A stretch of 64,000 bases of DNA. Source: a virus (Duplodnaviria > Caudoviricetes). The notes below the pieces were generated by a model. That model made no database searches. It saw only the letters and a list, made by a program, of their open reading frames with translations, and was not told where the DNA came from. The position numbers and the translations under genes were made by a program. Below, piece after piece: positions 4,176 through 58,849 of the stretch. The stretch lies in the IMG/VR virus record IMGVR_UViG_3300049926_000039, positions 5,804-69,803 of that record. One strand, 5' to 3'. How positions within the stretch are numbered: the stretch's first letter is position 1; each line of letters starts with the position of its first letter.

Positions 4176-4492
4176 GGTTCATCGCCGAAGGGGTCCCCGG
4201 TCGGGGGGCGGTACACGGGCTTGTCGTGGAAGCGCAGGGTCGACCCGATCGGGGGGTCGATGGCATCCGCGATGTCGTCGGTCAGATGCTGCCAGAACGT
4301 CCGCACGTCGGATGCGTGGAACGGCACGAGGTCCGACTTCGTCTCGAACCGAGCGGGCGTCTCGTCGATCAGGCGCTGCCCGGCCGCCTTCGCTTCCCGC
4401 TGTGCGTCGGCCTGAGTGCCGATGCGGTCGGTCCATCCGGCGAGGATCTGCTCGGCGGCTCGAACCAACGCGCTCGTGGTGAATCGAATCAT
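4172..4492 (-). CDS. hypothetical protein
   Basis: ATG 4492 (MIRFTT), overlap with next gene. Confidence 0.55.
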   Translation of the reverse strand: MIRFTTSALVRAAEQILAGWTDRIGTQADAQREAKAAGQRLIDETPARFETKSDLVPFHASDVRTFWQHLTDDIADAIDPPIGSTLRFHDKPVYRPPTGDPFGDEP

Positions 4493-4550
4493 GGCCCTGA
4501 TCGTCGCATGCCGTACGGCGGACCGCGCTGCCCATCGATACGATGCCCTC

Positions 4551-4976
4551 ATGAGTACCTCCGCTCGCCGGCGACGTACCGTCGCCCTCCTCATGTCCCC
4601 GGTCATGGCGCTGGCAGGCGCCCTGGCGATCGCCACCCCGGCATCGGCAAACCCGTACTCGAACACCGACGGCTACTGCGAGCAGGGCCGCATCTGCTTC
4701 TGGGAGAACAGCTACGAGACGGGCCGCCGGTTCACGTACCGCCCGTCGTACGGGACGGGGTTCAATCTGCAGTCGATGGCCAACAAGGTGTCTTCGATCA
4801 TGAACCACTCGGGTGACGACTGGACGGTGTTCGACTGGGGCAACTGCGACCCCGGCCACTGGCATCGGTACGTGTACGACGGCGCCACGATCGACAACAT
4901 GTACGGCTCGGACTGGCAGGACCGGATCAGTTCCACCAGCGTGATCAGCCGGACTTATGCGGGTCCGCCGTGCTGA
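4551..4976 (+). CDS. secreted peptidase inhibitor I36-like protein
   Basis: signal peptide ASA-N, CEQGRICFWENSYETG...VSSIMN...WQDRISS; TACGAT-N6-ATG promoter. Confidence 0.75.
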   Translation: MSTSARRRRTVALLMSPVMALAGALAIATPASANPYSNTDGYCEQGRICFWENSYETGRRFTYRPSYGTGFNLQSMANKVSSIMNHSGDDWTVFDWGNCDPGHWHRYVYDGATIDNMYGSDWQDRISSTSVISRTYAGPPC

Positions 4977-7335: not shown

Positions 7336-7501
7336 CGGCGTGCACGTGCTCACGGCGACGTACGCCGATGGCCGCACCGAGCGGATCCCGTGCCCCTGCG
7401 CATGGTGCGACCTGTGGCGGGCGTACCTACCGCAGATCAATGCGTTCCTGACCGAGGTCGAGCCGACCGTGCCATGGACGTACGGCCAGAGTGCCTCGTG
7501 A
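7328..7501 (+). CDS. hypothetical protein
   Basis: 57 aa, CPCAWC motif, overlaps terL start. Confidence 0.5.
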   Translation: MSDGVHVLTATYADGRTERIPCPCAWCDLWRAYLPQINAFLTEVEPTVPWTYGQSAS

Positions 7502-9135
7502 CGGTCGCCATGGAATTGACCTGCCCTCCACTGTTCGGTACGAAGCGGTCACCCGAACGGCCGACCCTCGGCCCGCAGGTGGCCCGCATCGCTGAGCAGT
7601 TGGGGCAGCCACTGCTACCACATCAGCGCTACATCTGCGATGTCGCGTTCGAGATCGACACCCAGACCGGGTACCTCGCGTATGACGAGGTGGTGGTGAT
7701 CGGCCCTAGACAATTGACCGGCAAGACCTTCCTCATCCACCCCGTCATGACCCACCGATGCGTCGGGTTCGGGGACGCACTGGTCGCATGGGTCAAACGC
7801 GAGCTCGGGCACACCGTCGTCGCGCCGGGTGCGCAACGGGTGCTCCATACCGCGCAGACGTTCGACAAGGCTAAGGAGAACTGGCGGGACACGTACATCT
7901 ACGGCGAGCATGGGCTGAAGAGATCGCCCTTCCGGTCGGTGATCGATGTACGGCTGAAGACGAACATGGAGGCCATCGCCTGGCCGAACGGCTCATCGTG
8001 GTCACCTGCGGCGACTACCGCGAAGACCGGTGGTACCGGTGCCACGCTGGATCTGGGCGTGATCGACGAGTCGTGGTCGCATCAGGATTTCCGTACCGAA
8101 CTGGCCATGCGGCCCGCCATGCTGACTCGGCCATGGGCTCAACTCTGGTCGCTGTCGATGATCCCCGGGCTGTCTCGCTCACAACCCGGTTCGTGGTCGT
8201 ACCTGCGCACGAAGCGGCAGAACGGTCGAGCACGAGTACAGGCGGACATCCGGCACGGCATGGCGTTCTTCGATTGGGCAGCCGCGCCGGGGCTCGACCC
8301 CGGCATGGAATCGACGTGGTGGACTTGCCTGCCCACGCTCGGGTTCCATCCCGGCGCTGTCCGTTCGGTCCGTTCCAGCTATGAGGCTGCGGTGGGGAAC
8401 GGCCAATTGGTCGACTTCTGCGCGGAGATCCTCGGATGGGAGCCTGCCCCGGGGCAACTGAGGTGGGGTGTGGTCAGCGAGGCGACGTGGCGTGCACTGA
8501 TCATCCCGGCCCACCGCGGCGCCTATCAGGACCCGGTCGCGTTCGGGGTGGACGCCCAACCGGATCAGTCGACGGCGAGCATCGGCATGGCCGCACGGAC
8601 GGTCATGGGTGACACGTTCGTGGAACTGATCGAGCGCAAGCCGGGCCTGAACTGGACGATCCCCGCCCTGGTGAAACTGGCCGCCGAGCATGGTCCATGC
8701 GCCATCGGCATCGCCGCGCACGGGCCGGCGGCGAGCATCATCGAACCGCTGCGGCGGGCACTGCTGGAAGCGGACGTCGACTGCCCCCCCTCGGTGGACA
8801 AGAGCATCGTCAAGGCTTTCCAAGGTCCGGACGTGTCGAAAGCGTGCCGTCAGTTCTTCCTCGAAACGGGCGAGGTCGGGGAGTATGACCAGGATGATCC
8901 GGCGCATGACGTGAACCGGCGTCTCGTGCACATCGACCAGCCCGAGCTCAACGCGTCGTTGGCGGGCGCGGTGAAGTACACATTCTCCGACGAGTGGCGC
9001 TGGCAGCGGTCGAGCGACGGAGGCGACGCCTCACCGCTGTACTCCGTGACGCTGGCGCGGGCCGCCGGCGAGTCGGTCGAATGGCTGGGCGGCTCGTACG
9101 ACATCCGCGACAGCTTGGGAGGGGCGAGGCAGTGA
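7498..9135 (+). CDS. terL: terminase large subunit
   Basis: Q motif LLPHQ, Walker A GPRQLTGKT, Walker B GVIDE, nuclease FGVD. Confidence 0.9.
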   Translation: MTVAMELTCPPLFGTKRSPERPTLGPQVARIAEQLGQPLLPHQRYICDVAFEIDTQTGYLAYDEVVVIGPRQLTGKTFLIHPVMTHRCVGFGDALVAWVKRELGHTVVAPGAQRVLHTAQTFDKAKENWRDTYIYGEHGLKRSPFRSVIDVRLKTNMEAIAWPNGSSWSPAATTAKTGGTGATLDLGVIDESWSHQDFRTELAMRPAMLTRPWAQLWSLSMIPGLSRSQPGSWSYLRTKRQNGRARVQADIRHGMAFFDWAAAPGLDPGMESTWWTCLPTLGFHPGAVRSVRSSYEAAVGNGQLVDFCAEILGWEPAPGQLRWGVVSEATWRALIIPAHRGAYQDPVAFGVDAQPDQSTASIGMAARTVMGDTFVELIERKPGLNWTIPALVKLAAEHGPCAIGIAAHGPAASIIEPLRRALLEADVDCPPSVDKSIVKAFQGPDVSKACRQFFLETGEVGEYDQDDPAHDVNRRLVHIDQPELNASLAGAVKYTFSDEWRWQRSSDGGDASPLYSVTLARAAGESVEWLGGSYDIRDSLGGARQ

Positions 9136-9748: not shown

Positions 9749-11050
9749 ATGGGACTCTTCGGCCCTAGGACGCAGCGGGCATTCTTCGGCATCACGGGCG
9801 CCGAGGATCTGATCCCGACCCAGACCCGGTTCGGTGGGGGTGTACGCGCGGTCGGCAATCAGGTGGTCACCGACGATCGGGCGATGCGGCACAGCGTGGT
9901 GTGGGCGTGTCTGCGCCTTCAGGCGGGGCTGATCTCGACATTCCCGGTCGACCAGTACCGCGACGTCCTCGGCATCCAGACCGAGTACAGCCCGATGCCG
10001 CCGATCCTCACCGATCCGGGCGGGACGCGGGTGGGCATGGTCGACTGGCTGGCGATGACCCAATTGGATCTCGGCCGGGCCGGGAACACGGTCGGATTGA
10101 TCGTGGAACGCAACGCCATGCGGACCCCGTACTACCCGGACGGCCTGCCGTCGCGGATCGAGCTGCAACCCGCTGCGATGTGCTCGTACGTCAAGCGCAG
10201 GGACAAGCCTGCCCAGTGGCGGATCGACGGCAAGTTCTACGACCCCCGGGACGTCTACCACGAGCGCGCCAACGTGGTCGCTGGGATGGACATCGGCCTG
10301 CCGACGGTGCTGTACGCCGCGCTGGCCATCGGCGAAGGTCTGTCGATGCAGAAGCACGGGCTCGACTGGTTCTCGACGGGCGGTATCCCGAAGGCCCGGA
10401 TGCGGAATCTCGCGAAGCGGCTCAACGCGAACGAGATCGCGACGGCGAAGCAGTGGTACTCGGACACGATCAACAACGGCGACGTGCTGGTAACCGGTAA
10501 CGACTGGGAGTACGACTTCATTCAGGCGCAGCAGGCGGGGATGGAGTTCATCGAGGGCCGCAAGTTGGCCGGCGCCGACGTGTGCCGCTACTTCGATACC
10601 CCTGCCGACCTGGTGGACGTGCAGGCCAGTAGCGGCGGCAGTATCACGTACGCGAACATCACTCAGCGGAACCTGCAGTACCTGCTCTACCACCTCGGCC
10701 CGATGGTGGCCCGCCGCGAGGTGGCCCTGAGCAGGCTGTTGCCCCGCCCCCGGTACGTGAAGCTGAACACCGACGCCCTGTTGCGGATGGACCCGCAGAC
10801 CAGGCAAGAGGTCATGCGCTCGAAGATCGAATCTTGGTTCCTGACGAACAGCGAAGCGCGCGAGCTCGACAACCTGCCGCCGCTGACCGCAGCACAGCGG
10901 GCCGAACTGACCGACATCTACGGACGGCCGTTGGCGGCCGCACGGACGTTGACCCCGACGCAGGGTCCGCCGACCACCACTGATACCGGCACCGAGCAGA
11001 GCGGCACCAACACGGATACGGCCCCGGCACCTGCCCCGGCCGGAGCATGA
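9749..11050 (+). CDS. HK97-family portal protein
   Basis: AMRHSVVWACLRL, FSTGGIP, DVCRYFDTP, SITYANITQ, TNSEARELDNLPP motifs. Confidence 0.92.
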   Translation: MGLFGPRTQRAFFGITGAEDLIPTQTRFGGGVRAVGNQVVTDDRAMRHSVVWACLRLQAGLISTFPVDQYRDVLGIQTEYSPMPPILTDPGGTRVGMVDWLAMTQLDLGRAGNTVGLIVERNAMRTPYYPDGLPSRIELQPAAMCSYVKRRDKPAQWRIDGKFYDPRDVYHERANVVAGMDIGLPTVLYAALAIGEGLSMQKHGLDWFSTGGIPKARMRNLAKRLNANEIATAKQWYSDTINNGDVLVTGNDWEYDFIQAQQAGMEFIEGRKLAGADVCRYFDTPADLVDVQASSGGSITYANITQRNLQYLLYHLGPMVARREVALSRLLPRPRYVKLNTDALLRMDPQTRQEVMRSKIESWFLTNSEARELDNLPPLTAAQRAELTDIYGRPLAAARTLTPTQGPPTTTDTGTEQSGTNTDTAPAPAPAGA

Positions 11051-11063
11051 GGGGAAGGCCATC

Positions 11064-12746
11064 ATGACGGTCACGGCAGCGGCGGAACGGCGCGCAGCGG
11101 CGGATCGACGTCTTTACGCCGCGAACGCCGAGCGCTACAACCACGGCGACATCGCCTACAAGCGGTACCGATCGTTGGCCCCGGGTATCGGCGTGGCCCG
11201 TCGAGTGCCGACGAAGACGCAGATCCGGGCGGTTCCCGAGACGCGCAATGACAAGGAGCTCGTGCACACGTCGGGTTTCTTCACCGTCTACGACCGGGCG
11301 TACCCGATGTGGGACACGTTCGGCCAGTACGAGGAAGTGGTGGTACGCGGGGCGGGCGCGAAGACGATCGCCGCGAAGCCGGATGTCGCCTTCCTGACCA
11401 ACCACACCGGCATGACGATGGCCCGGACGGTGAACGGGACGTTGGTCCTTCAGGAGCGGTCCGAGGGCGGGTGGCATGACGCGTGGTTGAACCCTCAGCG
11501 CAGCGACGTGCATGACCTGGTCGTGGCCATCGATGACAAGAACGTCGATCAGATGTCGTTCGCGTTCACCATCCCGGAGGATGGCGGATGGTGGTCGGAT
11601 GACTTCACCCGGTACGACATCCGCTCGTACGATCTGGACCGTGGCGACGTGAGCGCAGTCAACTACGGGGCGAGCCCGTACACGGACATCTCCGCCCGTG
11701 CGGCCGAGGTGCTGGACGACATCGAGCGTCTGCCGCTGGGTGCGCTGCACGAGGCCGCGGCCCGTCTCACCGCGCGGGCTCGCGAGGGTTCCGGGCGGGA
11801 TGGGCGGATCGAGGTACGCCACGCACCCCGCACGGTCGATCCGGGCGCTTCCCGCGCCGTCCGCACGCTGCAAGGCCGTTTCGCCCGCACCGCGGCCCGG
11901 TACGTGGATCTGTCCGAGCGCGGGAATCTGGGCGTGGCCGATCTGGTGACAGCGCGTCTGCCCTGGTACGAGATCCGGGCGAGTGAGGCCCCCACCGGTG
12001 AGAGCGACGCCCCGGAGTCGACGGACGTGTTCATCTACGACGAGATCGGCGGGTCCATGGGGGTGGACGCGAAAACTTTTGCCGAAGATTTGAACGCCAT
12101 TTCCACGCCACAGATCAACGTTCGTATCAATTCCCCCGGCGGTTCCGTGTTCGACGGGCTCGCCATCCACTCGTCGCTGATGCACCACCCTTCGCACGTC
12201 ACCACGTACGTGGACGGCATCGCGGCGTCGGCGGCGAGCGTGATCGCGCTGGGCGGGGACGAGATCGTGACCATGCCGGGCGGGCAGTGGATGATGCACA
12301 ACGCGTCCATGAGCATCGACGGGCAGGCCGTCGACCTGCGCAAGGGTGCGACGTTCCTCGATCGGCAGTCGGGCAACCTGGCCGAGATGTACGCCAAGCG
12401 GATGAACGTCCCGGTCGAGGATGCGCAGAGGTTGATGGACGAGGAGACGTGGGCGTTCGCCGAGGAGTCGGTGGAGTTGGGCCTGTCCGATCGGGTGGGC
12501 GAACGCAACCCCGCGAAGGTGCCGCAGGACATGTCCGAGCGAATGACCCGGAAGCATGATCTGACCAGGTTCGGCTACCGATACCTAGGCCGCTTCGCCG
12601 CCCCCGCCCCCCGTCAGACGCGCGTACCGGACGTCGCCAACGACCTCGTTCGGCGGGCTACATCGGAGCGCACTACCCCCGAACAGCCGAAAGGCCGTAG
12701 CATCGCCTTGATCGAGGCGCAATTGGGTCTTGACGAACGTAGTTAG
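11064..12746 (+). CDS. fusion: HK97 prohead protease + ClpP-like (S14) protease
   Basis: N-half FLTNH...MSFAF...DVSAVNYGASPYT; C-half INSPGGSVFDG, GIAASAASVI, MMHNA, EETW. Confidence 0.88.
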   Translation: MTVTAAAERRAAADRRLYAANAERYNHGDIAYKRYRSLAPGIGVARRVPTKTQIRAVPETRNDKELVHTSGFFTVYDRAYPMWDTFGQYEEVVVRGAGAKTIAAKPDVAFLTNHTGMTMARTVNGTLVLQERSEGGWHDAWLNPQRSDVHDLVVAIDDKNVDQMSFAFTIPEDGGWWSDDFTRYDIRSYDLDRGDVSAVNYGASPYTDISARAAEVLDDIERLPLGALHEAAARLTARAREGSGRDGRIEVRHAPRTVDPGASRAVRTLQGRFARTAARYVDLSERGNLGVADLVTARLPWYEIRASEAPTGESDAPESTDVFIYDEIGGSMGVDAKTFAEDLNAISTPQINVRINSPGGSVFDGLAIHSSLMHHPSHVTTYVDGIAASAASVIALGGDEIVTMPGGQWMMHNASMSIDGQAVDLRKGATFLDRQSGNLAEMYAKRMNVPVEDAQRLMDEETWAFAEESVELGLSDRVGERNPAKVPQDMSERMTRKHDLTRFGYRYLGRFAAPAPRQTRVPDVANDLVRRATSERTTPEQPKGRSIALIEAQLGLDERS

Positions 12747-12760
12747 ACGTGGACTAGGTC

Positions 12761-12902
12761 CGCTGGCAGTCACACCAGCGATCTTCGGCAGTCACACCGA
12801 CATGCCCACGACGACCAGTCCCTATAGCAACGCCACGCGGGCCCCCATCCGGCAGTCACACCGGCGGCGGTAGACGAACGCTGATCGGCAAGTCACACCC
12901 GG
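12761..12902 (+). repeat. four hairpins presenting loop CAGTCACA in the capsid-gene leader
   Basis: GGCAGTCACACC at three positions plus GGCAAGTCACACC, each closed by a different complementary stem. Confidence 0.8.
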
Positions 12903-12958
12903 ACGCGCCCGTACCTGCGGGGCAGGCTAACCACCTGCAACCCGAAGGAGACGTCGCT

Positions 12959-14428
12959 ATGGCGACGATCGAGGACATCATCATCAGCCTTGAGGCTGAG
13001 CGTGACCAGGAGCAGCGTGACCGGGAGCGGTCGCTGCAGGAGGTCAAGGGAATCTTGGCGTCGGCTCGCGGCGAGGGCCGTAGCAACGTCACCCCCGAAG
13101 AGGACGAGGCGGTCGAGCGCGCCGAGAAGCGCGCCGAAGACTGCAAGGCCCGGCTCAAGGGCGTCGAACACCGGCTCGACATCGCGAAGCGGACGAAGCT
13201 GCGCGAGCTCGAGAACGACGACGAACTACGCCAGCGGGCGGCCGAGCCCGAATCTCTCCCCCGTCGCGGATCGAGTGCCCCGGTCACGGCCGGCGGTAAG
13301 CCCGCGTACGACCGGGTGGCCCGCATCGGGCAGGAAGAGCGCACCTACCACAAGGGCAACACCGGTGACGGCGGCGTGTTCCTGCGCGACATCGCGATGC
13401 AGTACATGTTCCGCGACATCGAGGCAGAGCAGCGGCTCTCCCGCCACATGCAGGAGGAGCGGGTCGAACGCGGTCAGTACATGACCCGCGCGGTGGGCAC
13501 CGGCGCGTTCGCCGGCCTGACGGTCCCGCAGTATCTGACCGAGATGTACGCACCCGCTACGGCGAACCTGTCCCCGTTCGCGGACGTCTGCAATCACCAC
13601 GACCTGCCCGAGTCGGGCATGACGGTCAACATCTCCCGCATCACCACGCCGACGAGTGTGGCGCTGCAGGCGACGGAGAACCTGGCCGTGAGCAACACCG
13701 ACATCGATGACACTCTGCTCACGATCGCGGTACAGACCGCGGCCGGGCAGCAGATCCTCTCGCGTCAGGCGATCGAGCGTGGCACGGGCGTCGAGGGCAT
13801 CGTCATGGATGACCTGTTCCGCCGGTATGCGACGACGAAGGACAGCACGCTGATCAACCAGGCTGTAACCGGGCTGTCCGCGGTGGGCACGTCGGTGCCG
13901 TACGTGGACGCGACCCCGACGGCGGCCGAACTGTGGCCGAAGCTGCTGGGTGCGGCGTCGGGTGTCGAGCAGGCCCTGATCGGCATGGGCAACGCCGACA
14001 TCGCAGTCATGCACTCGCGTCGGTGGTACTGGTTCCAGTCGCAGCTCACGAACTCGTGGCCGCTGGTGTCCCAGCCTGGCCTCGGGTCGACGGGCGAGCC
14101 GGGTGCGGCGCTGGCCGCGAACAACGGCACGGCGTACGCGAAGGGTGCGCGCGGCGTCCTGCCGAGCGGCATGGTCGTGATCACGGACAACAACATCCCG
14201 ACCGTGAAGGGTGGCGGCACCGAGGACGAGATCTACGTGACGTCCAGCCAGGAATGTCACCTGTGGGAGGACCCGAACGCGCCGGTCTTCATCCGGGCGG
14301 AGCAGCCAGCGGCGGCCAGCCTAGGTGTCCTGCTTGTCCTTTATGGATACTTTGCCTACTCATTTGGGCGTTTCGCCAACTCTGTCAGTCTAATTGGGGG
14401 CACCGGCCTCATAGCGCCGGTCTTCTAG
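12959..14428 (+). CDS. major capsid protein (HK97 fold, N-terminal scaffold/delta domain)
   Basis: coiled-coil N-terminus, GTGAFAGLTVPQYL, position after protease, RBS AAGGAG. Confidence 0.9.
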   Translation: MATIEDIIISLEAERDQEQRDRERSLQEVKGILASARGEGRSNVTPEEDEAVERAEKRAEDCKARLKGVEHRLDIAKRTKLRELENDDELRQRAAEPESLPRRGSSAPVTAGGKPAYDRVARIGQEERTYHKGNTGDGGVFLRDIAMQYMFRDIEAEQRLSRHMQEERVERGQYMTRAVGTGAFAGLTVPQYLTEMYAPATANLSPFADVCNHHDLPESGMTVNISRITTPTSVALQATENLAVSNTDIDDTLLTIAVQTAAGQQILSRQAIERGTGVEGIVMDDLFRRYATTKDSTLINQAVTGLSAVGTSVPYVDATPTAAELWPKLLGAASGVEQALIGMGNADIAVMHSRRWYWFQSQLTNSWPLVSQPGLGSTGEPGAALAANNGTAYAKGARGVLPSGMVVITDNNIPTVKGGGTEDEIYVTSSQECHLWEDPNAPVFIRAEQPAAASLGVLLVLYGYFAYSFGRFANSVSLIGGTGLIAPVF

Positions 14429-14449
14429 GCGATCATTGCCCCGCTAATT

Positions 14450-14464
14450 TGATACAATGGACGG
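14450..14464 (+). promoter_or_regulatory. extended -10 leaderless promoter for HNH gene
   Basis: TGATACAAT-N6-ATG(14465). Confidence 0.6.
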
Positions 14465-15124
14465 ATGGAGCAGCAGAGGTGCGGACGGTGCAAGTCCAGT
14501 CTTCCGATCGACAAGTTCTCCCCGAGTTACCGGGGCAGAATCGGGACGTGGTGCAAGTCGTGCATGGCGGATTACGTCCGTGCGCGATCGAAAGGGACGG
14601 CTCCGACGCAGGAGCCCGTGCCCCACGAGACTCGGACGTGCGCGAAATGCGGAGGGACGTTCGTCCCGAAGAGGCTGGACGGTCGGTCGGCGTATTGCGG
14701 GTTCGCCTGCAAGGACAGGGCAAAGAAGGACCGGCAGATAGCCGAGCGGGAGACGGCCAAGCCTATCCGGCACTGCGTCTGGTGCTCAGTGGAGATGCCA
14801 CGGCGGATGCGCTCCGACGCTCGGTTCTGCTCAGAGGAGTGCAACTCCCGCGCGCACGCTATGACGCGGAAGTTCTGGAAGCGGTTCGGCGAGAGCCGGA
14901 CCGACTCGGCCCTGATTCTGAGGACCGAGTTGGCCGAGCGCGACGGGCTCGACTGCTATCTCTGCGGCGCCGCATTGACGTTGTCGAGCAAGCATCCGGA
15001 CCCGCTGTACGCGTCAGTGGATCATGTGCATCCGCTGGCGAAGGGCGGCACGAACGATCGATCGAATCTCAGGCTGGCGCACCTCGTGTGCAACTTGCGG
15101 AAGCGGGCCGAACTGGTCGCCTGA
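14465..15124 (+). CDS. free-standing HNH homing endonuclease with CxxC repeats
   Basis: multiple CxxC, RDGLDCYLCG...SVDHVHPLAKGGTNDRSNLRLAHLVCN. Confidence 0.88.
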   Translation: MEQQRCGRCKSSLPIDKFSPSYRGRIGTWCKSCMADYVRARSKGTAPTQEPVPHETRTCAKCGGTFVPKRLDGRSAYCGFACKDRAKKDRQIAERETAKPIRHCVWCSVEMPRRMRSDARFCSEECNSRAHAMTRKFWKRFGESRTDSALILRTELAERDGLDCYLCGAALTLSSKHPDPLYASVDHVHPLAKGGTNDRSNLRLAHLVCNLRKRAELVA

Positions 15125-15200
15125 GCACCATTAACCCTCAGCGCGTCCTCACCCTGTCCGGGTGTGGGCGCGCTTTCATGCGCCCGGAAGGGCGGTAGGC

Positions 15201-15560
15201 ATGGCATTCGGCATGCAGAACGCGTCAGGCGATACCGCCCTGACGCTCACGGCACAGGGCGCGGCCACGGTCGTGTCCGGTGCGATAGCGGCGGCGGGAG
15301 CGGCGGCGTACGTGCTGTTGCTCGTGCACGTCTCGGCGGTCACGGGGACCCCCACGCTGAACGTCTCGCTCGAACAGTCAGCGAGCGGCACGGGCAGCTG
15401 GTCGGCGGTCCCCGGTTCGGCCATCGCGCAGTTGTCGGCGGCGGGCAACGCGGTGGCGTTCGCCTATCCGACCGCCAACTACGTCCGGGTGACCGCCACG
15501 GTTGCCGGGACCACACCAGCGGTCACGGCGACAGTCGCCGTGATCACGTTCGCAGAGTAG
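15201..15560 (+). CDS. putative virion structural (decoration-like) protein
   Basis: beta-rich Ala/Thr/Val 119 aa protein after MCP. Confidence 0.55.
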   Translation: MAFGMQNASGDTALTLTAQGAATVVSGAIAAAGAAAYVLLLVHVSAVTGTPTLNVSLEQSASGTGSWSAVPGSAIAQLSAAGNAVAFAYPTANYVRVTATVAGTTPAVTATVAVITFAE

Positions 15561-31012: not shown

Positions 31013-31654
31013 CTACCGCCGAGGATACCGGGCCGCGCGGAACCCCGAACGCTGAGCGGTGTACAACATCCCGACCATGGCGTAGTCGTACGCCTCCGAC
31101 CACGCGTCGTCGTACTCGGGCCGCCACTCCTTGCCGGCGGCGTCGTGCAGCGTCTCGAACAGGATGCGCTTGACGGCCAGGTACTCGCCCACCGTCGCCC
31201 CCCGGATCGACCCGTCCGGGCGGTGGAACGCGGCGTGCGAACGGCCGAACGTCGCGAGGTGGGTATCGAGGATCGCCATCGACTCGGCGTCAGCTGGGTC
31301 GTACGTCTGAGACAGGGCGACCAGGGCGGCCAGCAGTTTGTCCCGCTGGCGCTTGCCCGGACTGTCGGTCTCCACCTCGGTAGCCGCGACCAGATCGGCG
31401 GGGAACAGCGCGGCAAGGCTGGGCGCGAAGTCGAGCAGGCGACGATAGAACTCGCGGACGGTGTCGTCGCCGTTGTCGCCGAGCAGGGCGATCGAACGGC
31501 GGAGCAGGTCGTTGGTCGTCAAGACGTTCCCCGTTCCCATGCAGTGCGGGCAAGGTTCCCTGGCGGCGGGCGTGTCAAGGGCGTGGACCCCCGAATCGGT
31601 CAGCGGGTCGGGGGACGGTAGCGGAGCGTCGGCGGTGCCAGTCGGCTCGGACAT
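31013..31654 (-). CDS. single-domain globin with N-terminal CxxCxGxG motif
   Basis: EFYRRL (B10 Tyr), ALFP (CD1 Phe), QRDKLLAAL (E7 Gln), FGRSH (F8 His), W...DAW..AYD; CPHCMGTG; RBS AAAGGAA. Confidence 0.8.
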   Translation of the reverse strand: MSEPTGTADAPLPSPDPLTDSGVHALDTPAAREPCPHCMGTGNVLTTNDLLRRSIALLGDNGDDTVREFYRRLLDFAPSLAALFPADLVAATEVETDSPGKRQRDKLLAALVALSQTYDPADAESMAILDTHLATFGRSHAAFHRPDGSIRGATVGEYLAVKRILFETLHDAAGKEWRPEYDDAWSEAYDYAMVGMLYTAQRSGFRAARYPRR

Positions 31655-31706
31655 GTTCGGTTCCTTTCGTCGGAAGGGCCACACGGTCGACTCCTCACAG
31701 GTCGGG

Positions 31707-45756: not shown

Positions 45757-46740
45757 ATGACCGAACCGCTGACCAGGGAACAGGCTGAGAAGGCCGACCA
45801 CATCCTCCGCAATCGCACCCCGAACCTGAACAAGGCGCTCGCCGCGTTCCAGGCCGAAATGCCCGCGCTCGAACGGGACCGACACGTTGACGTAGAGACG
45901 AAAGATCCAAGCAAGGCGTATGGGTACAGCTACGCCACCCTCGCCAACGTGACCGCCGTCGCCATGCCGCTGCTCGGCAAGCACGGGCTCAGCTTCACCG
46001 CGTTCCCAGGTGCCGGGTCCGACGGCAAGGGCATGTCGCTGAAGTACTCACTGCTCCACGAGTCTGGGGAAGAGCGGACGGGGGAGTGGCCATTCTCCGC
46101 CGAGGGCGGGATACAGATCCTCGGCGGGCGTCTTACCTACCTACGTCGCTATTGCCTGCTCGCCGTAACCGGGCTCGCCGCGGCCGAAGACGACGACGCG
46201 GCCGCCGCTCAGGCCGAGGACGAGGCCAACGCCGGGACGGTGCAGCGCCGGCAGCGGCCGCCCGTAAAGGCCACGGCCCGCCCCGCTACCGCCACCACCC
46301 GGGCGCCCGCCCTGGGCGCTGCGGAGGGCGAGACCGTACAGCGTCAGCGCCCGGCCAGTCCGCCGCTCCCGGGCGAAGAGGCCGACACTCCCACCGTGCC
46401 GATGCAGCGCAAGCTCGCTATTCAGTTCGGCCAGCTCGAAGTGACCGATCGGGACGAACGGCTGGCCCTGATGACCGACATGATCGGACGACCGATCACC
46501 TCGATCAAGGATCTGACCAAGAGCGAGGCGCACGCCGCGATCGACGCCATCGACAAGGCGCTGAAGACCGACAACCCGCTCACGTCGATGCTGGAGATCT
46601 ACCAGCGCACCTCGGCCGAACCTGCCGCAGCCGAGGGCCGTCCCGCCGGCCAGCGGTCGCGCAACGCCCGCGAGGCGGTCACCAACGGCGGAGACGAGGG
46701 CGCGGAAGAGGCGCCGTGGGAAGGACAGATGCCGGTATGA
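45757..46740 (+). CDS. ERF-family single-strand annealing protein
   Basis: YSYATLANV...LLGKHGLSF...TYLRRYCLLAVTGLAAAEDDDA. Confidence 0.85.
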   Translation: MTEPLTREQAEKADHILRNRTPNLNKALAAFQAEMPALERDRHVDVETKDPSKAYGYSYATLANVTAVAMPLLGKHGLSFTAFPGAGSDGKGMSLKYSLLHESGEERTGEWPFSAEGGIQILGGRLTYLRRYCLLAVTGLAAAEDDDAAAAQAEDEANAGTVQRRQRPPVKATARPATATTRAPALGAAEGETVQRQRPASPPLPGEEADTPTVPMQRKLAIQFGQLEVTDRDERLALMTDMIGRPITSIKDLTKSEAHAAIDAIDKALKTDNPLTSMLEIYQRTSAEPAAAEGRPAGQRSRNAREAVTNGGDEGAEEAPWEGQMPV

Positions 46741-53211: not shown

Positions 53212-53915
53212 TCCAGGTAGGGCCTAGCCTGGCCGAGTGGCAGACCGAAAACGGGGACGACCCTAGCCATTACATCTACGGTCTGCACGATCCTCGCACT
53301 CTCGCCCTGCGCTACATCGGCAAGTCGGACAATCCCGCGCAGCGACTCGCGCGGCAGATGAATGAGCGCGCCGAGACTCACCGCTGTCACTGGATCGGCG
53401 AACTCCGCTCGCTGGGGTTACGCCCGATTCAGGTCATCATCGACTCGACGCCGCCCGGGTCCGACTGGCAGTCCGTGGAGCAGGCGTACATCGCCGCTGC
53501 TCGCGCTGCGGGTGACCCGCTGACCAACGGGACGGATGGGGGGGGCGGAGTAGTCGGGCTGAGCGCCGAGTCTCGGGAGCGCATGCGGCGCGCGTGGACC
53601 GGGCGCAAACACACCCCCGAAGAGCTTGCCAAGATGTCCGCAGCAAGCTTGGGCCGGAAGCACACCGAGTCCTGGCGCCTGATGATGAGCAGGCGCATGA
53701 GTGGACGCGAGTTCAGCGCTGAACATCGGGCGCGACTCCGCCGTGGCGTCCAGAAGCTAGCAGGTGACCAGGTCCGCGAAATCCGGGCCCTGCTCGCCCG
53801 GAACGTCTCGCAGTGCACGATCGCGGCGCAGTACGGCGTTCACCAGGGGACCATCAGCAACATCGCGCGAGGGATCACCTACCGCGACATCGGCACGGAG
53901 GGAGTCAATCGATGA
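53208..53915 (+). CDS. GIY-YIG homing endonuclease with NUMOD3-like repeats and HTH
   Basis: YIYGL...YIGKS...R...E...LTN; GRKHTPEELAKMS/GRKHTESW repeats; C-terminal IAAQYGVHQGTISNI. Confidence 0.85.
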   Translation: MIQVGPSLAEWQTENGDDPSHYIYGLHDPRTLALRYIGKSDNPAQRLARQMNERAETHRCHWIGELRSLGLRPIQVIIDSTPPGSDWQSVEQAYIAAARAAGDPLTNGTDGGGGVVGLSAESRERMRRAWTGRKHTPEELAKMSAASLGRKHTESWRLMMSRRMSGREFSAEHRARLRRGVQKLAGDQVREIRALLARNVSQCTIAAQYGVHQGTISNIARGITYRDIGTEGVNR

Positions 53916-54823
53916 ACATCGACGACGAGTTCTACGACACCGACGAGGCCGCCGGCTCGGCGTTCCGCATGATCCTCGGCGATAGCTGCGAGGAACTGCC
54001 CAAGCTCGAATCGGACAGCGTAGACCTTTCGGTCCATTCCCCGCCGTTCGACTCACTCTACACATACAGCCCGACCATCCGCGACATGGGGAACTCTCCC
54101 GACCGGGAGACCTTCCACAAGCACTACGGATTCGTCGTGCGCGAACTCCTGCGACTGACCAGGCCGGGCAGGATGGCGTGCGTGCATGTGATGGACCTGC
54201 CGACCACCAAGGCGACGCACGGCGTCGTCGGGCTGACGGACTTCTCCGCCGAGGTCGTCCGCGACTACCAGGATGCGGGGTGGATATTCGTCAACCGCAT
54301 CACGATCCGCAAGAACCCGCAGGCCGCCGCGACCCGCACCAAGTCCCACGGGCTCGCGTTTGCTCAGCTTCGCCGCGACCGTTCACAAACCAGGCCCGTC
54401 TACCCCGACTACCTACTGCTGTTCCGCAAGCCGGGGCAGAATACAGTGCCGATCATCTCGCCGCTCAGCGACTCCGGCGACCAGCGGATCGACAATGATC
54501 TCTGGATCAAGTGGGCCGAGGCGATCTGGGACGACATCCGCGAGACCAACACGCTGAACGTCGCGGTAGCTCGAGATGACGCGGACGAGCGGCACCTGTG
54601 CCCTCTGTCCCTCGACCTGATCGAGCGGTGCGTGCGGTTGTGGAGCAACCCCGGCGAACACGTGCTGTCGCCGTGCGCCGGCATTGGCAGCGAGGGGCAC
54701 TCGTCACTCAAGCTCGGTCGCCGGTTCACCGGCGTCGAACTGAAGCGCTCGTACTGGCAGACCGCCGTCAACAACCTGCGTCAGGTCGAAGCCGAGGCCA
54801 ACGCGCTGACACTGTTCGCCTGA
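53912..54823 (+). CDS. DNA methyltransferase (N4-C/N6-A, beta class)
   Basis: SVDLSVHSPPF motif IV precedes VLSPCAGIGSEG motif I. Confidence 0.88.
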   Translation: MNIDDEFYDTDEAAGSAFRMILGDSCEELPKLESDSVDLSVHSPPFDSLYTYSPTIRDMGNSPDRETFHKHYGFVVRELLRLTRPGRMACVHVMDLPTTKATHGVVGLTDFSAEVVRDYQDAGWIFVNRITIRKNPQAAATRTKSHGLAFAQLRRDRSQTRPVYPDYLLLFRKPGQNTVPIISPLSDSGDQRIDNDLWIKWAEAIWDDIRETNTLNVAVARDDADERHLCPLSLDLIERCVRLWSNPGEHVLSPCAGIGSEGHSSLKLGRRFTGVELKRSYWQTAVNNLRQVEAEANALTLFA

Positions 54824-54839: not shown

Positions 54840-56000
54840 ATGCCGTTCACCTCACCACCCGGCGCGCTCGCCCGCGCCGTCAAGTACGCCGCACGATGGA
54901 TCGACCCCAAGCCCATCGACGCCGCCCACGGAGGGCTCCTGTTCCAGGTCGCCGGGGGCAAACTCCATGTCACCGGATTCAACGAGAACGCCACCGGCCG
55001 CGCGACCATCGACGTCGAGACCGACGGCGACATGAGCTTCCTGATCTCCGGACGGCTGATCGCCCAACTCGTCGACACGTTCCCCGACAAGCCCGCCACC
55101 TTCACCGACGAGGGAGCGGCCATCGGGCTGAAAGCCGGACGGTGGGAGGGCACCCTACCCGCCATGTCCGTAAGTGATTACCCGCGACTGCCGAGTGAGG
55201 CCACCATCGCGGGGCACGTCAACGGTGACGCGCTGGCCGACGCCGTGGCCCGGGTCGCCGTGGCCGCCGGCAAAGACATCGTGTCCCGGGTCGCCCTCGC
55301 GGGCGTACACGTCGCGTTCGGGGACGGCACCCTGACCCTGACCGCCACCGACTCGTACCGAGCCGTACGGCAGTCGGTGGAGTGGACGCCATACAACGGG
55401 GGACCGGTCGGTGACGCCGCTATCGTGTTCGCTTCGGTCCTGGTCGACGCCGCCGAGGCGTTCACCGGGAAGGTCGACGCCGTGGCCGTCGGGTGGAAGG
55501 CCGGATCATTCAGCCTCACCACCCCCGAACGTTCGCTGGTCACGCGCACCATCGGCGACCCGACCAAGCCGGACGACGAATTCCCCACCTTCGGTCTTGC
55601 CGGGCTGTTCGCCACGACCAGCACCGCCACGGCCATCGTCAGCGCGCGGGACATGGCCATGCCGATCAAGCGGGCCGACCTGATCCGCGACCGCAAGTCC
55701 GAGACGGTCAGCCTCACATTCCGCGAGAACACGGTGTCCGTATCCGCGAGCTCGGAGGCCAGCAGCGGAGGTGAGGACATCGACGCGAAGTACGACGGCG
55801 CGGACTGCACCGTCATGGTCCGGTCCGGGCTACTGCACGCCGCGCTCGCCACCGCACCGGGAGACGAGGTGGTCATGGGGCTCGTGCCCGAGTCGATGGC
55901 CCGCGGCGTGCGACCGAAACCGATCGTTCTCACCTCGGCCGCCGACCCGACGTGGCGCCACATCGTCATGCCCGTACAGGCCCAGGGAAGCCTCAGATGA
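54840..56000 (+). CDS. dnaN: DNA polymerase III beta sliding clamp
   Basis: three-domain pattern, LAGVH...LTATDSYRA, DYPRLP, C-terminal HIVMPV. Confidence 0.85.
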   Translation: MPFTSPPGALARAVKYAARWIDPKPIDAAHGGLLFQVAGGKLHVTGFNENATGRATIDVETDGDMSFLISGRLIAQLVDTFPDKPATFTDEGAAIGLKAGRWEGTLPAMSVSDYPRLPSEATIAGHVNGDALADAVARVAVAAGKDIVSRVALAGVHVAFGDGTLTLTATDSYRAVRQSVEWTPYNGGPVGDAAIVFASVLVDAAEAFTGKVDAVAVGWKAGSFSLTTPERSLVTRTIGDPTKPDDEFPTFGLAGLFATTSTATAIVSARDMAMPIKRADLIRDRKSETVSLTFRENTVSVSASSEASSGGEDIDAKYDGADCTVMVRSGLLHAALATAPGDEVVMGLVPESMARGVRPKPIVLTSAADPTWRHIVMPVQAQGSLR

Positions 56001-56697: not shown

Positions 56698-57473
56698 CCT
56701 GGTTCAAGGTCGACGACGGGTGGCACAAGCACCGCAAGCGCATCCGTGCGGGGCTCGATATGGAGGGCATGGCGGCTCAAGGACTGTGGGCGGCAGCGGG
56801 CTCGTGGGCGTCCGACGAACACACCGACGGATGGGTGCCGGCCGAGGTTGTCGACTATCTTTCCCCCAAGATCGGCCGAAAACTTGCCGCGCGTTTGGTA
56901 AAAGCTGCGCTGTGGTCCGCAGAAAATCGCAACGGTGAAGAAGGTTGGCAGTTCCATGCATGGGTGGACCGCAACCCCACCAGCGAAGAAGAAGCTGCCC
57001 GGTCGGCGAAGAAGTCCAGCGGTGGCGCATTGGGCAATCACCGCAGGTGGCACGTGGGGCGAAGGGTTGACCCGAGGTGCCTCTACTGCTCGGATACCGT
57101 ATCGGTATACCGATCGGATACCCGATCGGAAGACCAATCAGAGAACCGATTGGAAGTCCAATCGGCCGACCGAAACGGGGGGCGAACCGTTACGCATCCC
57201 CCGACCCGTCCCGACCCGTCCCGTCCCGAACCCTTAAGTTCAAAGTCAAAATCAAGTACTAAAACCGGGGGGGTTGATCTAGGTTCTCCACTTACTAAGA
57301 ATAATCCACCCAATGTCGACGAATCGGACTTACCGTACGCTCAGCGGCACCGCAAACGGTGGTGCGACGAACACGGCTCACCGGACGACAGGCACTGCGT
57401 GGCCTGCCTGCAAGAGCACGGCGACATCGGCTATTGGTCGAAGCGTTCACTGTCGTCCAGGGGTGAGAAGTGA
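56694..57473 (+). CDS. phage replication initiator (lambda O-like)
   Basis: MTWFKVDD...GLW...SW...TDGWVP N-terminus; PTRPDPSRP linker; precedes DnaB. Confidence 0.8.
   Translation: MTWFKVDDGWHKHRKRIRAGLDMEGMAAQGLWAAAGSWASDEHTDGWVPAEVVDYLSPKIGRKLAARLVKAALWSAENRNGEEGWQFHAWVDRNPTSEEEAARSAKKSSGGALGNHRRWHVGRRVDPRCLYCSDTVSVYRSDTRSEDQSENRLEVQSADRNGGRTVTHPPTRPDPSRPEPLSSKSKSSTKTGGVDLGSPLTKNNPPNVDESDLPYAQRHRKRWCDEHGSPDDRHCVACLQEHGDIGYWSKRSLSSRGEK
57093..57265. repeat. candidate replication origin: 12-bp iteron-like repeats, CCCGT repeats, AT-rich tract
   Basis: 12-nt periodic CC(G/A)AT(C/T)(G/A) units 57105-57164; AT-rich 57233-57263. Confidence 0.6.
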
Positions 57474-58849
57474 CCACGGCCGAGGTGGAGTCTGACCAGG
57501 ATTGGTCCGCGCCGGCCCACGACAACCTCGCGGAGTGTTGCGCCCTCGGCGCGATGATGATGTCCCCCGCCATCGCGGACACGGTCGGGGAGATCCTGAC
57601 TGCGGCGGACTTCTACAAGCCGATGCACGGGGCGATCTTCGCTGCCATCGGGCGCCTAGCTGCCACCGGTAGGCCGATCGACGGAGCCACGGTCGCCGCA
57701 GAGCTGGCCGACTCCGGAGACCTCGTGCGGATCGGCGGGGTGCCGTACCTGCACACGCTGATCGAGTCCGTGCCTACGCCCGCCAACGGTCCGTACTACG
57801 CGCTGAAGGTCGCGGACGCATCCCGGCGCCGCAGGATCGTCGAGGCAGGGCTACGGATCGTGCAGCTAGGCCGCAGTGAGAGTGCGGTGGGCGAAGTCGC
57901 CGAACAGGCTCAGGAGGCGATCCACGCGGCGACCACGGACCCGCGGGACCGGACGGTCATCACGAGCATCGGCGACCTCGCCGAACCGACGCTGAGGCAC
58001 ATCGAGGACGTCGCCGACGGGAAGATCCCGCCCGGTATCCCGACCGGGTTCAAGGATTACGACAGGCTCACCGGCGGGCACCGTCCCGGCCAGCTCATCA
58101 TTCCGGCGGGCCGTACGTCGATGGGCAAATCGGTGTGGACTCAGAACGTGGTGGCCCACTGCGCGCAGCACGTCGTCCGCCCGGTCATCCTGTTCTCGAA
58201 TGAGATGCCCGAGTTAGACATGATGATGCGGTTCTACAGCGAGGTGGCCCGCGTCCCGCTACACAAGATCCTGCACGGGACGATCGACGGAGAGGACCGG
58301 GCGAAACTGCGGGACGCGCGGGACCTAGTGCTGACGTGGCCGCTGTACGTGGTCGATACTTGCCGGACGATCCCGTCGATCCGGGCCTACCTGCGGCGGT
58401 TCACTCAGAAACACGGCGATCTGGCCCTGTTCGCCGTGGACTACCTCCAGATGATCTCACCGGTGGCCACCGGTGGCCGGCGGCCGGACCGGCACGTCGA
58501 GGTGGGGTCTTTCGCCCGGGACCTGAAGGTCATGGCGGTGGACCTGCAAGCGGTGTGCGTTGCTCCGTGCCAGCTCAACCGGGGCACGGAGACACGCGGC
58601 GGCAAGAACGCAAACGTCCCGCGACTGTCCGATCTGCGAGAGTCCGGCGACCTCGAGCAGACCGCCGACAATGTGATCCTGCTGTATCGCCCGTCGTACT
58701 ACGACAAGCAATCGCCGCGCACCGGTGAGGCGGATTTCATCATCGCAAAGCACCGGCACGGGGCCACGGACACGGTCACCGTCGCCGAGCAGCTGCACCT
58801 GATGCGCTTCGTGGACATGGCGATTGTGGAGCCCCGATCATGGGAGTGA
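57470..58849 (+). CDS. dnaB: DnaB replicative helicase
   Basis: DFYKPMHGAIF, AGRTSMGKS, VDYLQM, CQLNR, PRLSDLRESGDLEQTAD, IAKHRHG. Confidence 0.93.
   Translation: MTTAEVESDQDWSAPAHDNLAECCALGAMMMSPAIADTVGEILTAADFYKPMHGAIFAAIGRLAATGRPIDGATVAAELADSGDLVRIGGVPYLHTLIESVPTPANGPYYALKVADASRRRRIVEAGLRIVQLGRSESAVGEVAEQAQEAIHAATTDPRDRTVITSIGDLAEPTLRHIEDVADGKIPPGIPTGFKDYDRLTGGHRPGQLIIPAGRTSMGKSVWTQNVVAHCAQHVVRPVILFSNEMPELDMMMRFYSEVARVPLHKILHGTIDGEDRAKLRDARDLVLTWPLYVVDTCRTIPSIRAYLRRFTQKHGDLALFAVDYLQMISPVATGGRRPDRHVEVGSFARDLKVMAVDLQAVCVAPCQLNRGTETRGGKNANVPRLSDLRESGDLEQTADNVILLYRPSYYDKQSPRTGEADFIIAKHRHGATDTVTVAEQLHLMRFVDMAIVEPRSWE

Follow-up and report, generated by a model that had tools for sequence, protein, structure and literature searches.

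Tailed phages make hundreds of capsid subunits for each portal and for a few dozen protease molecules from one operon, and to our knowledge the control of the capsid/portal/protease ratio is mostly unexplained outside a few model phages. Several described RNA systems are close enough to serve as references for a hairpin element in a head-gene message. The boxB hairpin of the lambda nut site has a 5-bp stem capped by a GNRA-like loop of 5 nt, is present as a single copy per operon beside boxA and is bound by the arginine-rich N protein. The operators of the MS2/PP7 coat proteins, T4 gp43 and RegA are single and overlap the ribosome-binding site or the start codon. CsrB/RsmZ RNAs are separate small RNAs whose GGA loops bind CsrA, a protein that, as far as we know, is lacking in Actinobacteria. 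The T7 RNase III sites and the ompA, aprE and SP82 stabilisers consist of long duplexes or of a terminal hairpin only. The iron-responsive element, present five times in the transferrin receptor message, is defined by a loop of six nucleotides, CAGUGN, together with a C bulged out of the stem five pairs further down, and IRE-like sites have been reported for actinobacterial aconitases.

The locus described here shares features with each of these and coincides with none of them. It lies in a 64,000-nt window (the whole stretch of DNA that was analysed) from an IMG/VR record of 69.8 kb with a G+C content of about 67%, and it is a real, conserved and uncatalogued structured RNA leader of the cis-regulatory phage mRNA hairpin kind.

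Genes around the capsid leader

The head genes of the window and the ribosome-binding site of its capsid gene are the following.

7390-9135, large terminase (TerL) gene (Pfam/PHROGs)
9749-11050, portal gene (Pfam/PHROGs)
11064-12746, + strand, prohead protease open reading frame of 560 aa with Peptidase_S78 and ClpP-like domains (Pfam, PHROGs and translation)
12944-12950, + strand, Shine-Dalgarno sequence GAAGGAG, 8 nt 5' of the capsid ATG
12959-14428, + strand, major capsid protein gene, 489 aa (PHROGs phrog_2263, E=2.5e-45)

The gap between the protease and capsid genes measures 212 nt and is filled by four hairpins (hp1 to hp4), the first of which begins 15 nt 3' of the protease stop codon. 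An earlier note on this DNA had placed the hairpins in the capsid mRNA leader, 60-200 nt upstream of the ribosome-binding site; the flanking protease and capsid genes are as it claimed, while the distance needs correction, the four hairpins lying about 43-185 nt 5' of the Shine-Dalgarno sequence, with the nearest one ending 42 nt before it. About 15 kb of same-strand structural genes begin at the array, and the capsid protein that they start with has a coiled-coil, scaffold-like N-terminal domain. A small open reading frame in the gap (12730-12873, 47 aa, TTG start) offers an unlikely coding explanation, as compensatory changes in the hairpin stems argue against it.

Several neighbouring and distant genes of the window deserve mention in their own right. 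The protease reading frame joins two distinct protease domains, Peptidase_S78 (residues 65-214) and a ClpP-like domain (residues 347-481); in tblastn comparison with the complete related genomes, G002-G005 matched over only about 184-250 aa and G001 over 573 residues. Directly 3' of the capsid gene lies an HNH endonuclease gene (14465-15124, + strand), which has no match at the equivalent position in five complete relatives and may represent a free-standing homing endonuclease; in G004 a weak partial HNH match (33% over 78 residues) is found about 6 kb upstream of the capsid gene. A globin-domain phage protein is encoded at 31013-31684 on the - strand (Pfam Globin, E=5e-7) and occurs also in G001 and G002. 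A peptidase-inhibitor I36-like domain is present in two proteins (1944-2555 and 4416-4976, + strand) that are unmatched in the five complete relatives. A DNA polymerase III beta clamp and a DnaB-type helicase are encoded at 54840-56000 and 57470-58849 (+ strand), with an ERF recombinase (45757-46740) and a DNA methylase (53813-54823) close to them.

Four hairpins with a shared loop

The hairpins were scored with R1, a covariance model of the single hairpin.

12761-12780, + strand, hp1: 6-bp stem CGCUGG/CCAGCG, loop CAGUCACA, -10.4 kcal/mol, R1 score 22.1 bits
12785-12800, + strand, hp2: 4-bp stem UCGG/CCGA, loop CAGUCACA, -3.9 kcal/mol, R1 score 20.4 bits
12849-12864, + strand, hp3: 4-bp stem CCGG/CCGG, loop CAGUCACA, -5.1 kcal/mol, R1 score 25.1 bits, the best in the window
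12885-12902, + strand, hp4, a degenerate copy: UCGG/CCGG, 10-nt loop CAAGUCACAC, -1.4 kcal/mol

The hairpins follow each other at distances of 22, 64 and 37 nt. Across the entire 69.8-kb record there are three copies of the 12-mer GGCAGTCACACC, all of them within the array and on the + strand, and AGTCACAC occurs four times in the window, again only in the array. The initial observation of four hairpins with an invariant loop thus stands for the hairpins themselves and for three exact loops CAGUCACA, but not for the loop of hp4, which differs by one inserted A and an extra C; the stability of hp4 taken alone is no better than that of shuffled sequence, and the same position forms a hairpin in relatives. 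For the 3' half of the leader, comparative evidence was preferred over single-sequence folding, in which hp3 and hp4 were not recovered.

Conservation and covariation of the hairpins

Searches with the capsid protein revealed at least 228 relatives in IMG/VR, the loci of 80 of which were fetched, and 42 in bacterial genomes, the latter being prophages of Micromonospora, Amycolatopsis, Streptomyces, Nonomuraea and others. The gap before the capsid gene is unusually long (about 120-220 nt) in nearly all relatives, and in most of them it holds two to four hairpins with loops matching within each phage. Dozens of uncultured relatives carry the array ahead of their capsid gene, as do prophages of Micromonospora, Amycolatopsis and Streptomyces. 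With a strict, loop-agnostic definition of a hairpin, at least two hairpins with the same loop were found in 42 of 98 distinct capsid leaders and in 5 of 834 coding control windows taken from the same loci, so chance is excluded as the source of the pattern. One leader, that of the Streptomyces sp. WGS_02 scaffold (L093), stood outside this comparison; about 170 nt 5' of its capsid start are a masked run of N.

Covariation was assessed on 79 distinct hairpins chosen by the loop alone (at most one mismatch to CAGTCAGA). Their flanks paired in 73% of cells compared with 57% after shuffling, a level reached in 0 of 500 shuffles, and the covariation score was 0.395 against 0.146 for shuffled flanks and at most 0.13 for slid-partner controls. 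Double changes were present at all six pairs, the closing pair being GC in 54, CG in 9 and AU in 8 hairpins. Locus L021 illustrates the pattern, with identical loops on unrelated stems (GCAUCGC/GCGGUGU, GGGC/GUCC and GAG/CUC). The stem covariation means that structure is selected, and it bears out the earlier proposal of selection on a hairpin with a conserved loop; the refuting case named there, homologous leaders with a kept sequence but no covarying stems, was looked for, and the outcome favours structure. The array is part of a conserved folded RNA leader that stands ahead of the capsid gene in many actinomycete phages and prophages, and very probably it is a functional RNA structure of some kind.

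A larger folded leader with an exposed ribosome-binding site

Alignments of 10, 20 and 23 leader sequences, folded as a consensus with RNAalifold, showed a common plan over a conserved leader of about 200 nt: hp1, hp2, a short box, hp3, hp4, a UGCGGG segment, a further hairpin (P5) and then GAAGGAG 8 nt before the ATG. In the window the additional elements are placed as follows.

12833-12839, + strand, box CC-A-CGCG, proposed 5' strand of a long-range helix J; nearly invariant in 20-23 leaders, paired by RNAalifold with 12916-12919
12916-12921, + strand, UGCGGG, proposed 3' strand of helix J (RNAalifold, pair counts)
12922-12938, + strand, P5 hairpin, GCAGG / loop CUAACCA / CCUGC, just 5' of the ribosome-binding site (RNAalifold)

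Helix J, formed by the CGCG of the box with UGCG/CGCG, is predicted to enclose hp3 and hp4 in a junction. In the alignments 85% of its cells are paired, covariation is seen only in the outer pair (UA 9, CG 5) and one other pair alternates between G-C and G-U; the covariation support is limited because both strands are nearly invariant. P5 covaries (GC 14, AU 5 and GU 3 at one pair, and further changes at others). In the single-sequence fold of the window the segment 12916-12921 extends P5 instead, pairing with CCCG at 12941-12944. Both alternative partners of UGCGGG are conserved in relatives, and the prediction suggests that helix J and the extended P5 are two mutually exclusive conformations. 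The backbone of box, J and P5 is kept where the hairpin loops differ strongly, for example in L025, L079 and L022.

Masking of the ribosome-binding site by the leader was considered and rejected: in 30 leaders the Shine-Dalgarno sequence was unpaired with a probability of 0.48 in the native context and 0.45 behind shuffled upstream sequence. With the ribosome-binding site unmasked and the array hairpins at least 42 nt upstream, occlusion of the classical operator type is unlikely. No sigma-70-type promoter was found between 11000 and 15500; a TAnAGC-like stretch 5' of the box is not conserved and does not end in the T of a -10 element. A terminator search of the + strand over the same interval likewise returned no terminator-like site, and none of the hairpins is followed by a T run as in intrinsic terminators. 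Actinobacterial terminators without U tails usually have longer stems.

Restriction to the capsid leader and catalogue searches

In the window, and likewise in five complete genomes of relatives (61-64 kb), R1 gives no strong match outside the capsid leader. In three host genomes the top matches were the prophage leaders and the remainder was noise, and a host regulon was accordingly rejected, as these genomes held no other top-scoring matches. Dispersal of the REP/BIME or MITE type does not fit strong matches that lie only in capsid leaders throughout the window, the five relatives and the three hosts. Mimics of CRISPR repeats and type III toxin-antitoxin repeats do not fit stems that differ while the loop alone is shared, and the irregular spacing and the capsid gene downstream count against them as well.

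The exact 16-mer CCGGCAGTCAGACCGG was found in 55 IMG/VR loci, in 35 of which it lies on the same strand 60-200 nt upstream of this capsid family; the capsid gene was seen directly in 34 of these, and the remaining locus (L174) ends before the gene. Among the other 20 loci, 18 had only one loop-like copy within 250 nt, and the six that were read carried single copies in apparent coding DNA of unrelated, mostly low-G+C contigs. Matches away from capsid leaders are roughly as many as chance would give, by our own rough estimate, for which the size of the collection is not given.

That the earlier note did not recognise a described motif here agrees with Rfam 15, where a cmscan of positions 12500-13200 with E up to 10 returned three chance-level matches, none of them on the hairpins. 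No description of this hairpin element was found in the literature. A large catalogue of candidate viral structured RNAs contains five candidates upstream of a capsid family, given without detail (PMC10690425).

Loop switching and candidate readers

The loop sequence varies between lineages. Loop CAGUCACA is shared by the window phage and locus L008, CAGUCAGA is the commonest loop and is carried by most relatives and by Micromonospora prophages, CACUCAGA is found in an Amycolatopsis prophage and others, and GAGUCAUA in L037. Streptomyces prophages and their IMG/VR kin carry CAGAUGCC, CAGAUCGC, CAGACGC or CAGAUGAC, with CAGAYSNC as the consensus of the Streptomyces prophages. Loops match within a phage and differ between lineages; they thus change in concert. 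Stems within a phage are not homogenised, so that gene conversion among the copies is no explanation for their identical loops; a reader that recognises the loop sequence and varies from lineage to lineage would account for them.

The 65 candidate open reading frames of the window were compared with five complete array-bearing genomes. Only TerL, portal, protease (the ClpP-like part) and capsid were common to all six, and genes of replication, regulation and tail were not. Since head genes alone are common to the carriers, the array travels with the head-gene module, and a homologous reader encoded by the phages would consequently have to be the terminase, the portal, the protease or the capsid protein; otherwise it would be a host protein. 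No candidate RNA-binding protein was identified among the about 26 of about 74 window open reading frames that were scanned with Pfam or PHROGs.

The capsid protein is itself mosaic. Its N-terminal domain and body are 83% and 64% identical to those of L008, and 72% and 88% identical to those of L004. The leader and the portal (87%) of the window are closest to L008, and the capsid body is closest to L004 (88%). In comparison of the window with L004, L008 and L037 the mosaic breakpoints lie inside the capsid gene. Across 22 loci, more distant loops went with more divergent capsid N-terminal domains (Mantel r=0.32, p=0.005), and no such correlation was seen for the capsid body; in a second selection of loci (n=18) the protease C-terminus and the capsid N-terminus tracked the loop equally, with r of about 0.23. 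The identification of a reader by co-variation was therefore set aside, as its outcome was unstable between locus selections and could also reflect simple linkage. RNA complementary to the loop was sought as well. Two GUGAC words within the first 80 nt of the capsid gene seemed to complement it but were rejected, as relatives keep no matching word, and the flanks contain no 7-nt complement of the loop in a position that relatives share.

Proposed mechanism and rival explanations

The structure is conserved, restricted to the capsid leader and inherited together with the head module. We infer an action as sense-strand RNA, a reading of the loops by protein and an effect on the message. Assignment to RNA and to the sense strand is based on the position, the constant orientation and the linkage to the module, and not from wobble pairs: G-U and A-C pairs numbered 11 and 10 in the hairpin stems, and 16 and 11 in J and P5, and wobble asymmetry was dropped as a proof of sense-strand RNA because the balanced counts do not discriminate between RNA and DNA or between sense and antisense. 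The capsid message would carry the hairpins as RNA structures in its 5' leader, each of them short and weak, with a stem free to vary and an 8-nt loop on display, and together they would offer a sequence-specific RNA-binding protein several docking sites at once. The bound protein would set the fate of the capsid message through its stability, processing or read-through, and capsid output could thereby be uncoupled from the portal and protease genes upstream. We give this reading, a multivalent protein-docking array acting on capsid message stability, processing or read-through, a probability of about 0.5. The earlier note had proposed a multivalent protein-binding or RNase-processing element that sets the capsid-to-protease ratio, which may be correct in part; the larger leader, the concerted switching of the loops and the unmasked ribosome-binding site go beyond what it described. 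A narrower version, which we put forward only tentatively, is a previously unrecognised autogenous control of head assembly, in which a protein of the head module would read the loops of its own message and co-evolve with them; the most attractive candidate would be unassembled capsid protein acting through its scaffold-like N-terminal domain.

The main rival to a docking array is a processing and stabilising cassette in which host RNase E would cut the loops and so detach the capsid message from that of portal and protease, with J and P5 protecting the new 5' end. In mycobacteria this enzyme cleaves single-stranded RNA just before a C, at the motif RN/CNU and often in intergenic regions (PMC10641625). 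The loops do offer such a position, as their central C is invariant in 79 of 79 hairpins and is preceded by G-U, reading G-U/C-A, and the ribosome-binding site, which is exposed, immediately follows the stable P5 hairpin. The preference of the enzyme outside the +1 C is, however, weak (PMC10641625), and it cannot explain an 8-nt loop that is identical in four copies and switches from lineage to lineage; moreover, most loops have no U at the +3 position of the motif. We therefore consider processing by RNase E unlikely, though worth keeping in mind, and other roles less likely still. Of these, a decoy would act in trans: the four hairpins of the most abundant late transcript would titrate a host RNA-binding protein in the manner of CsrB/RsmZ-type RNAs. 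Several low-stability hairpins with identical loops are indeed the anatomy of a sponge RNA, and the loop type follows the host group, with Micromonospora and Amycolatopsis on one side, Streptomyces on the other and the Mycobacterium phages of cluster J different again. Phage lineage and host are nevertheless confounded in this pattern, the motif is not enriched outside prophages in the three host genomes, which leaves no visible set of host targets, and the array keeps a fixed place in the capsid leader, on a conserved backbone, as would suit a role in cis; a sponge is therefore improbable.

An elongation or antitermination signal in the nascent RNA, similar to lambda boxB/N or HK022 put and serving read-through of the capsid-to-tail operon, would account for lineage-specific loops with a lineage-specific factor, which is the boxB/N pattern, and for the place of the array, which is followed by about 15 kb of structural genes on the same strand. 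It is made doubtful, to much the same degree as the sponge, by the negative terminator search of the + strand over 11000-15500, by the lack of an N-like protein among the genes common to the six complete genomes, and by a loop size and a fourfold array unlike those of nut and put sites. Finally, the element might act at the DNA level, as an operator for a transcription factor or as a single-stranded DNA hairpin for replication, recombination or packaging. The wobble test does not favour RNA, and the stem consensus CCGG...CCGG is palindromic, as such a role would allow. Stems that differ between the copies of one phage yet stay complementary speak against it, given that a duplex operator needs no such pairing; the loop is asymmetric and always in the orientation of the genes, the carriers share head genes only and neither replication genes nor regulators, and the motif is missing from the rest of each genome. 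A DNA-level role thus appears very improbable.

Cluster J mycobacteriophages and significance

A search of a phage collection returned no DNA match among isolated phages. At the protein level the only matches among isolated phages were to cluster J mycobacteriophages, with a capsid identity of 31%. Their gap between protease and capsid measures 174 nt (Optimus, L084:2264-2437) and contains two hairpins with the common loop UGGCACU (L084, L201 and L202); one compensatory stem change is seen, from CCCCC/GGGGG in Optimus to CCCUC/GAGGG in Baka. This hairpin pair may be an analogue of the array in a culturable system. The paper on cluster J makes no mention of leader hairpins (PMC3706429).

The element described here is a well-defined and widely conserved RNA element at the protease-capsid junction. 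Its covariation is clear, and a loop particular to each lineage implies a specific reader. It is open to work at the bench, as its carriers include prophages of cultivable Micromonospora and Streptomyces, and cluster J phages, with their possibly analogous hairpin pair, grow on Mycobacterium smegmatis. It might also be considered a candidate for a compact, orthogonal RNA-protein pair in actinomycete engineering.

Comparison with known systems

Each of the reference systems shares some feature with the array and departs from it in others. The CsrB/RsmZ RNAs are similar in being low-stability hairpin arrays with the same loop throughout and multivalent binding; the array, however, is part of an mRNA leader, and its loop consensus CAGUCAGA contains no GGA. 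The T7 RNase III sites and the ompA, aprE and SP82 stabilisers are likewise structured intergenic elements that uncouple the level of the downstream message, and 5' stabilisers also place a stable hairpin just before the ribosome-binding site, but the array has a loop sequence conserved fourfold, which those sites do not have. Iron-responsive elements resemble it in presenting several loops that start with CAG(U) within one untranslated region; neither the 6-nt loop nor the bulged C is present here, where loops have 8 nt and stems of 3-7 bp show no conserved bulge.

The operators of the MS2/PP7 coat proteins, T4 gp43 and RegA, together with the scaffold autoregulation of P22, come closer, being hairpins in phage messages through which the output of a structural protein is controlled. 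Like the coat- and RegA-type operators, the array offers weak hairpins with a conserved loop, here possibly read by a head protein, and it differs from them in lying 43-185 nt upstream with the ribosome-binding site exposed, neither overlapping nor masking it. The boxB/N pair of lambda is equally close, as a small leader hairpin whose loop is read sequence-specifically and varies between related phages while the stem is free. The array differs from boxB in its 8-nt loops (10 nt in hp4) and its four copies. As to a cognate N-like protein, the genes common to the carriers all belong to the head module, and about 26 of about 74 candidate open reading frames of the window were scanned with Pfam or PHROGs. 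Overall, the array most resembles a boxB/N or a coat-protein/operator pair multiplied fourfold.
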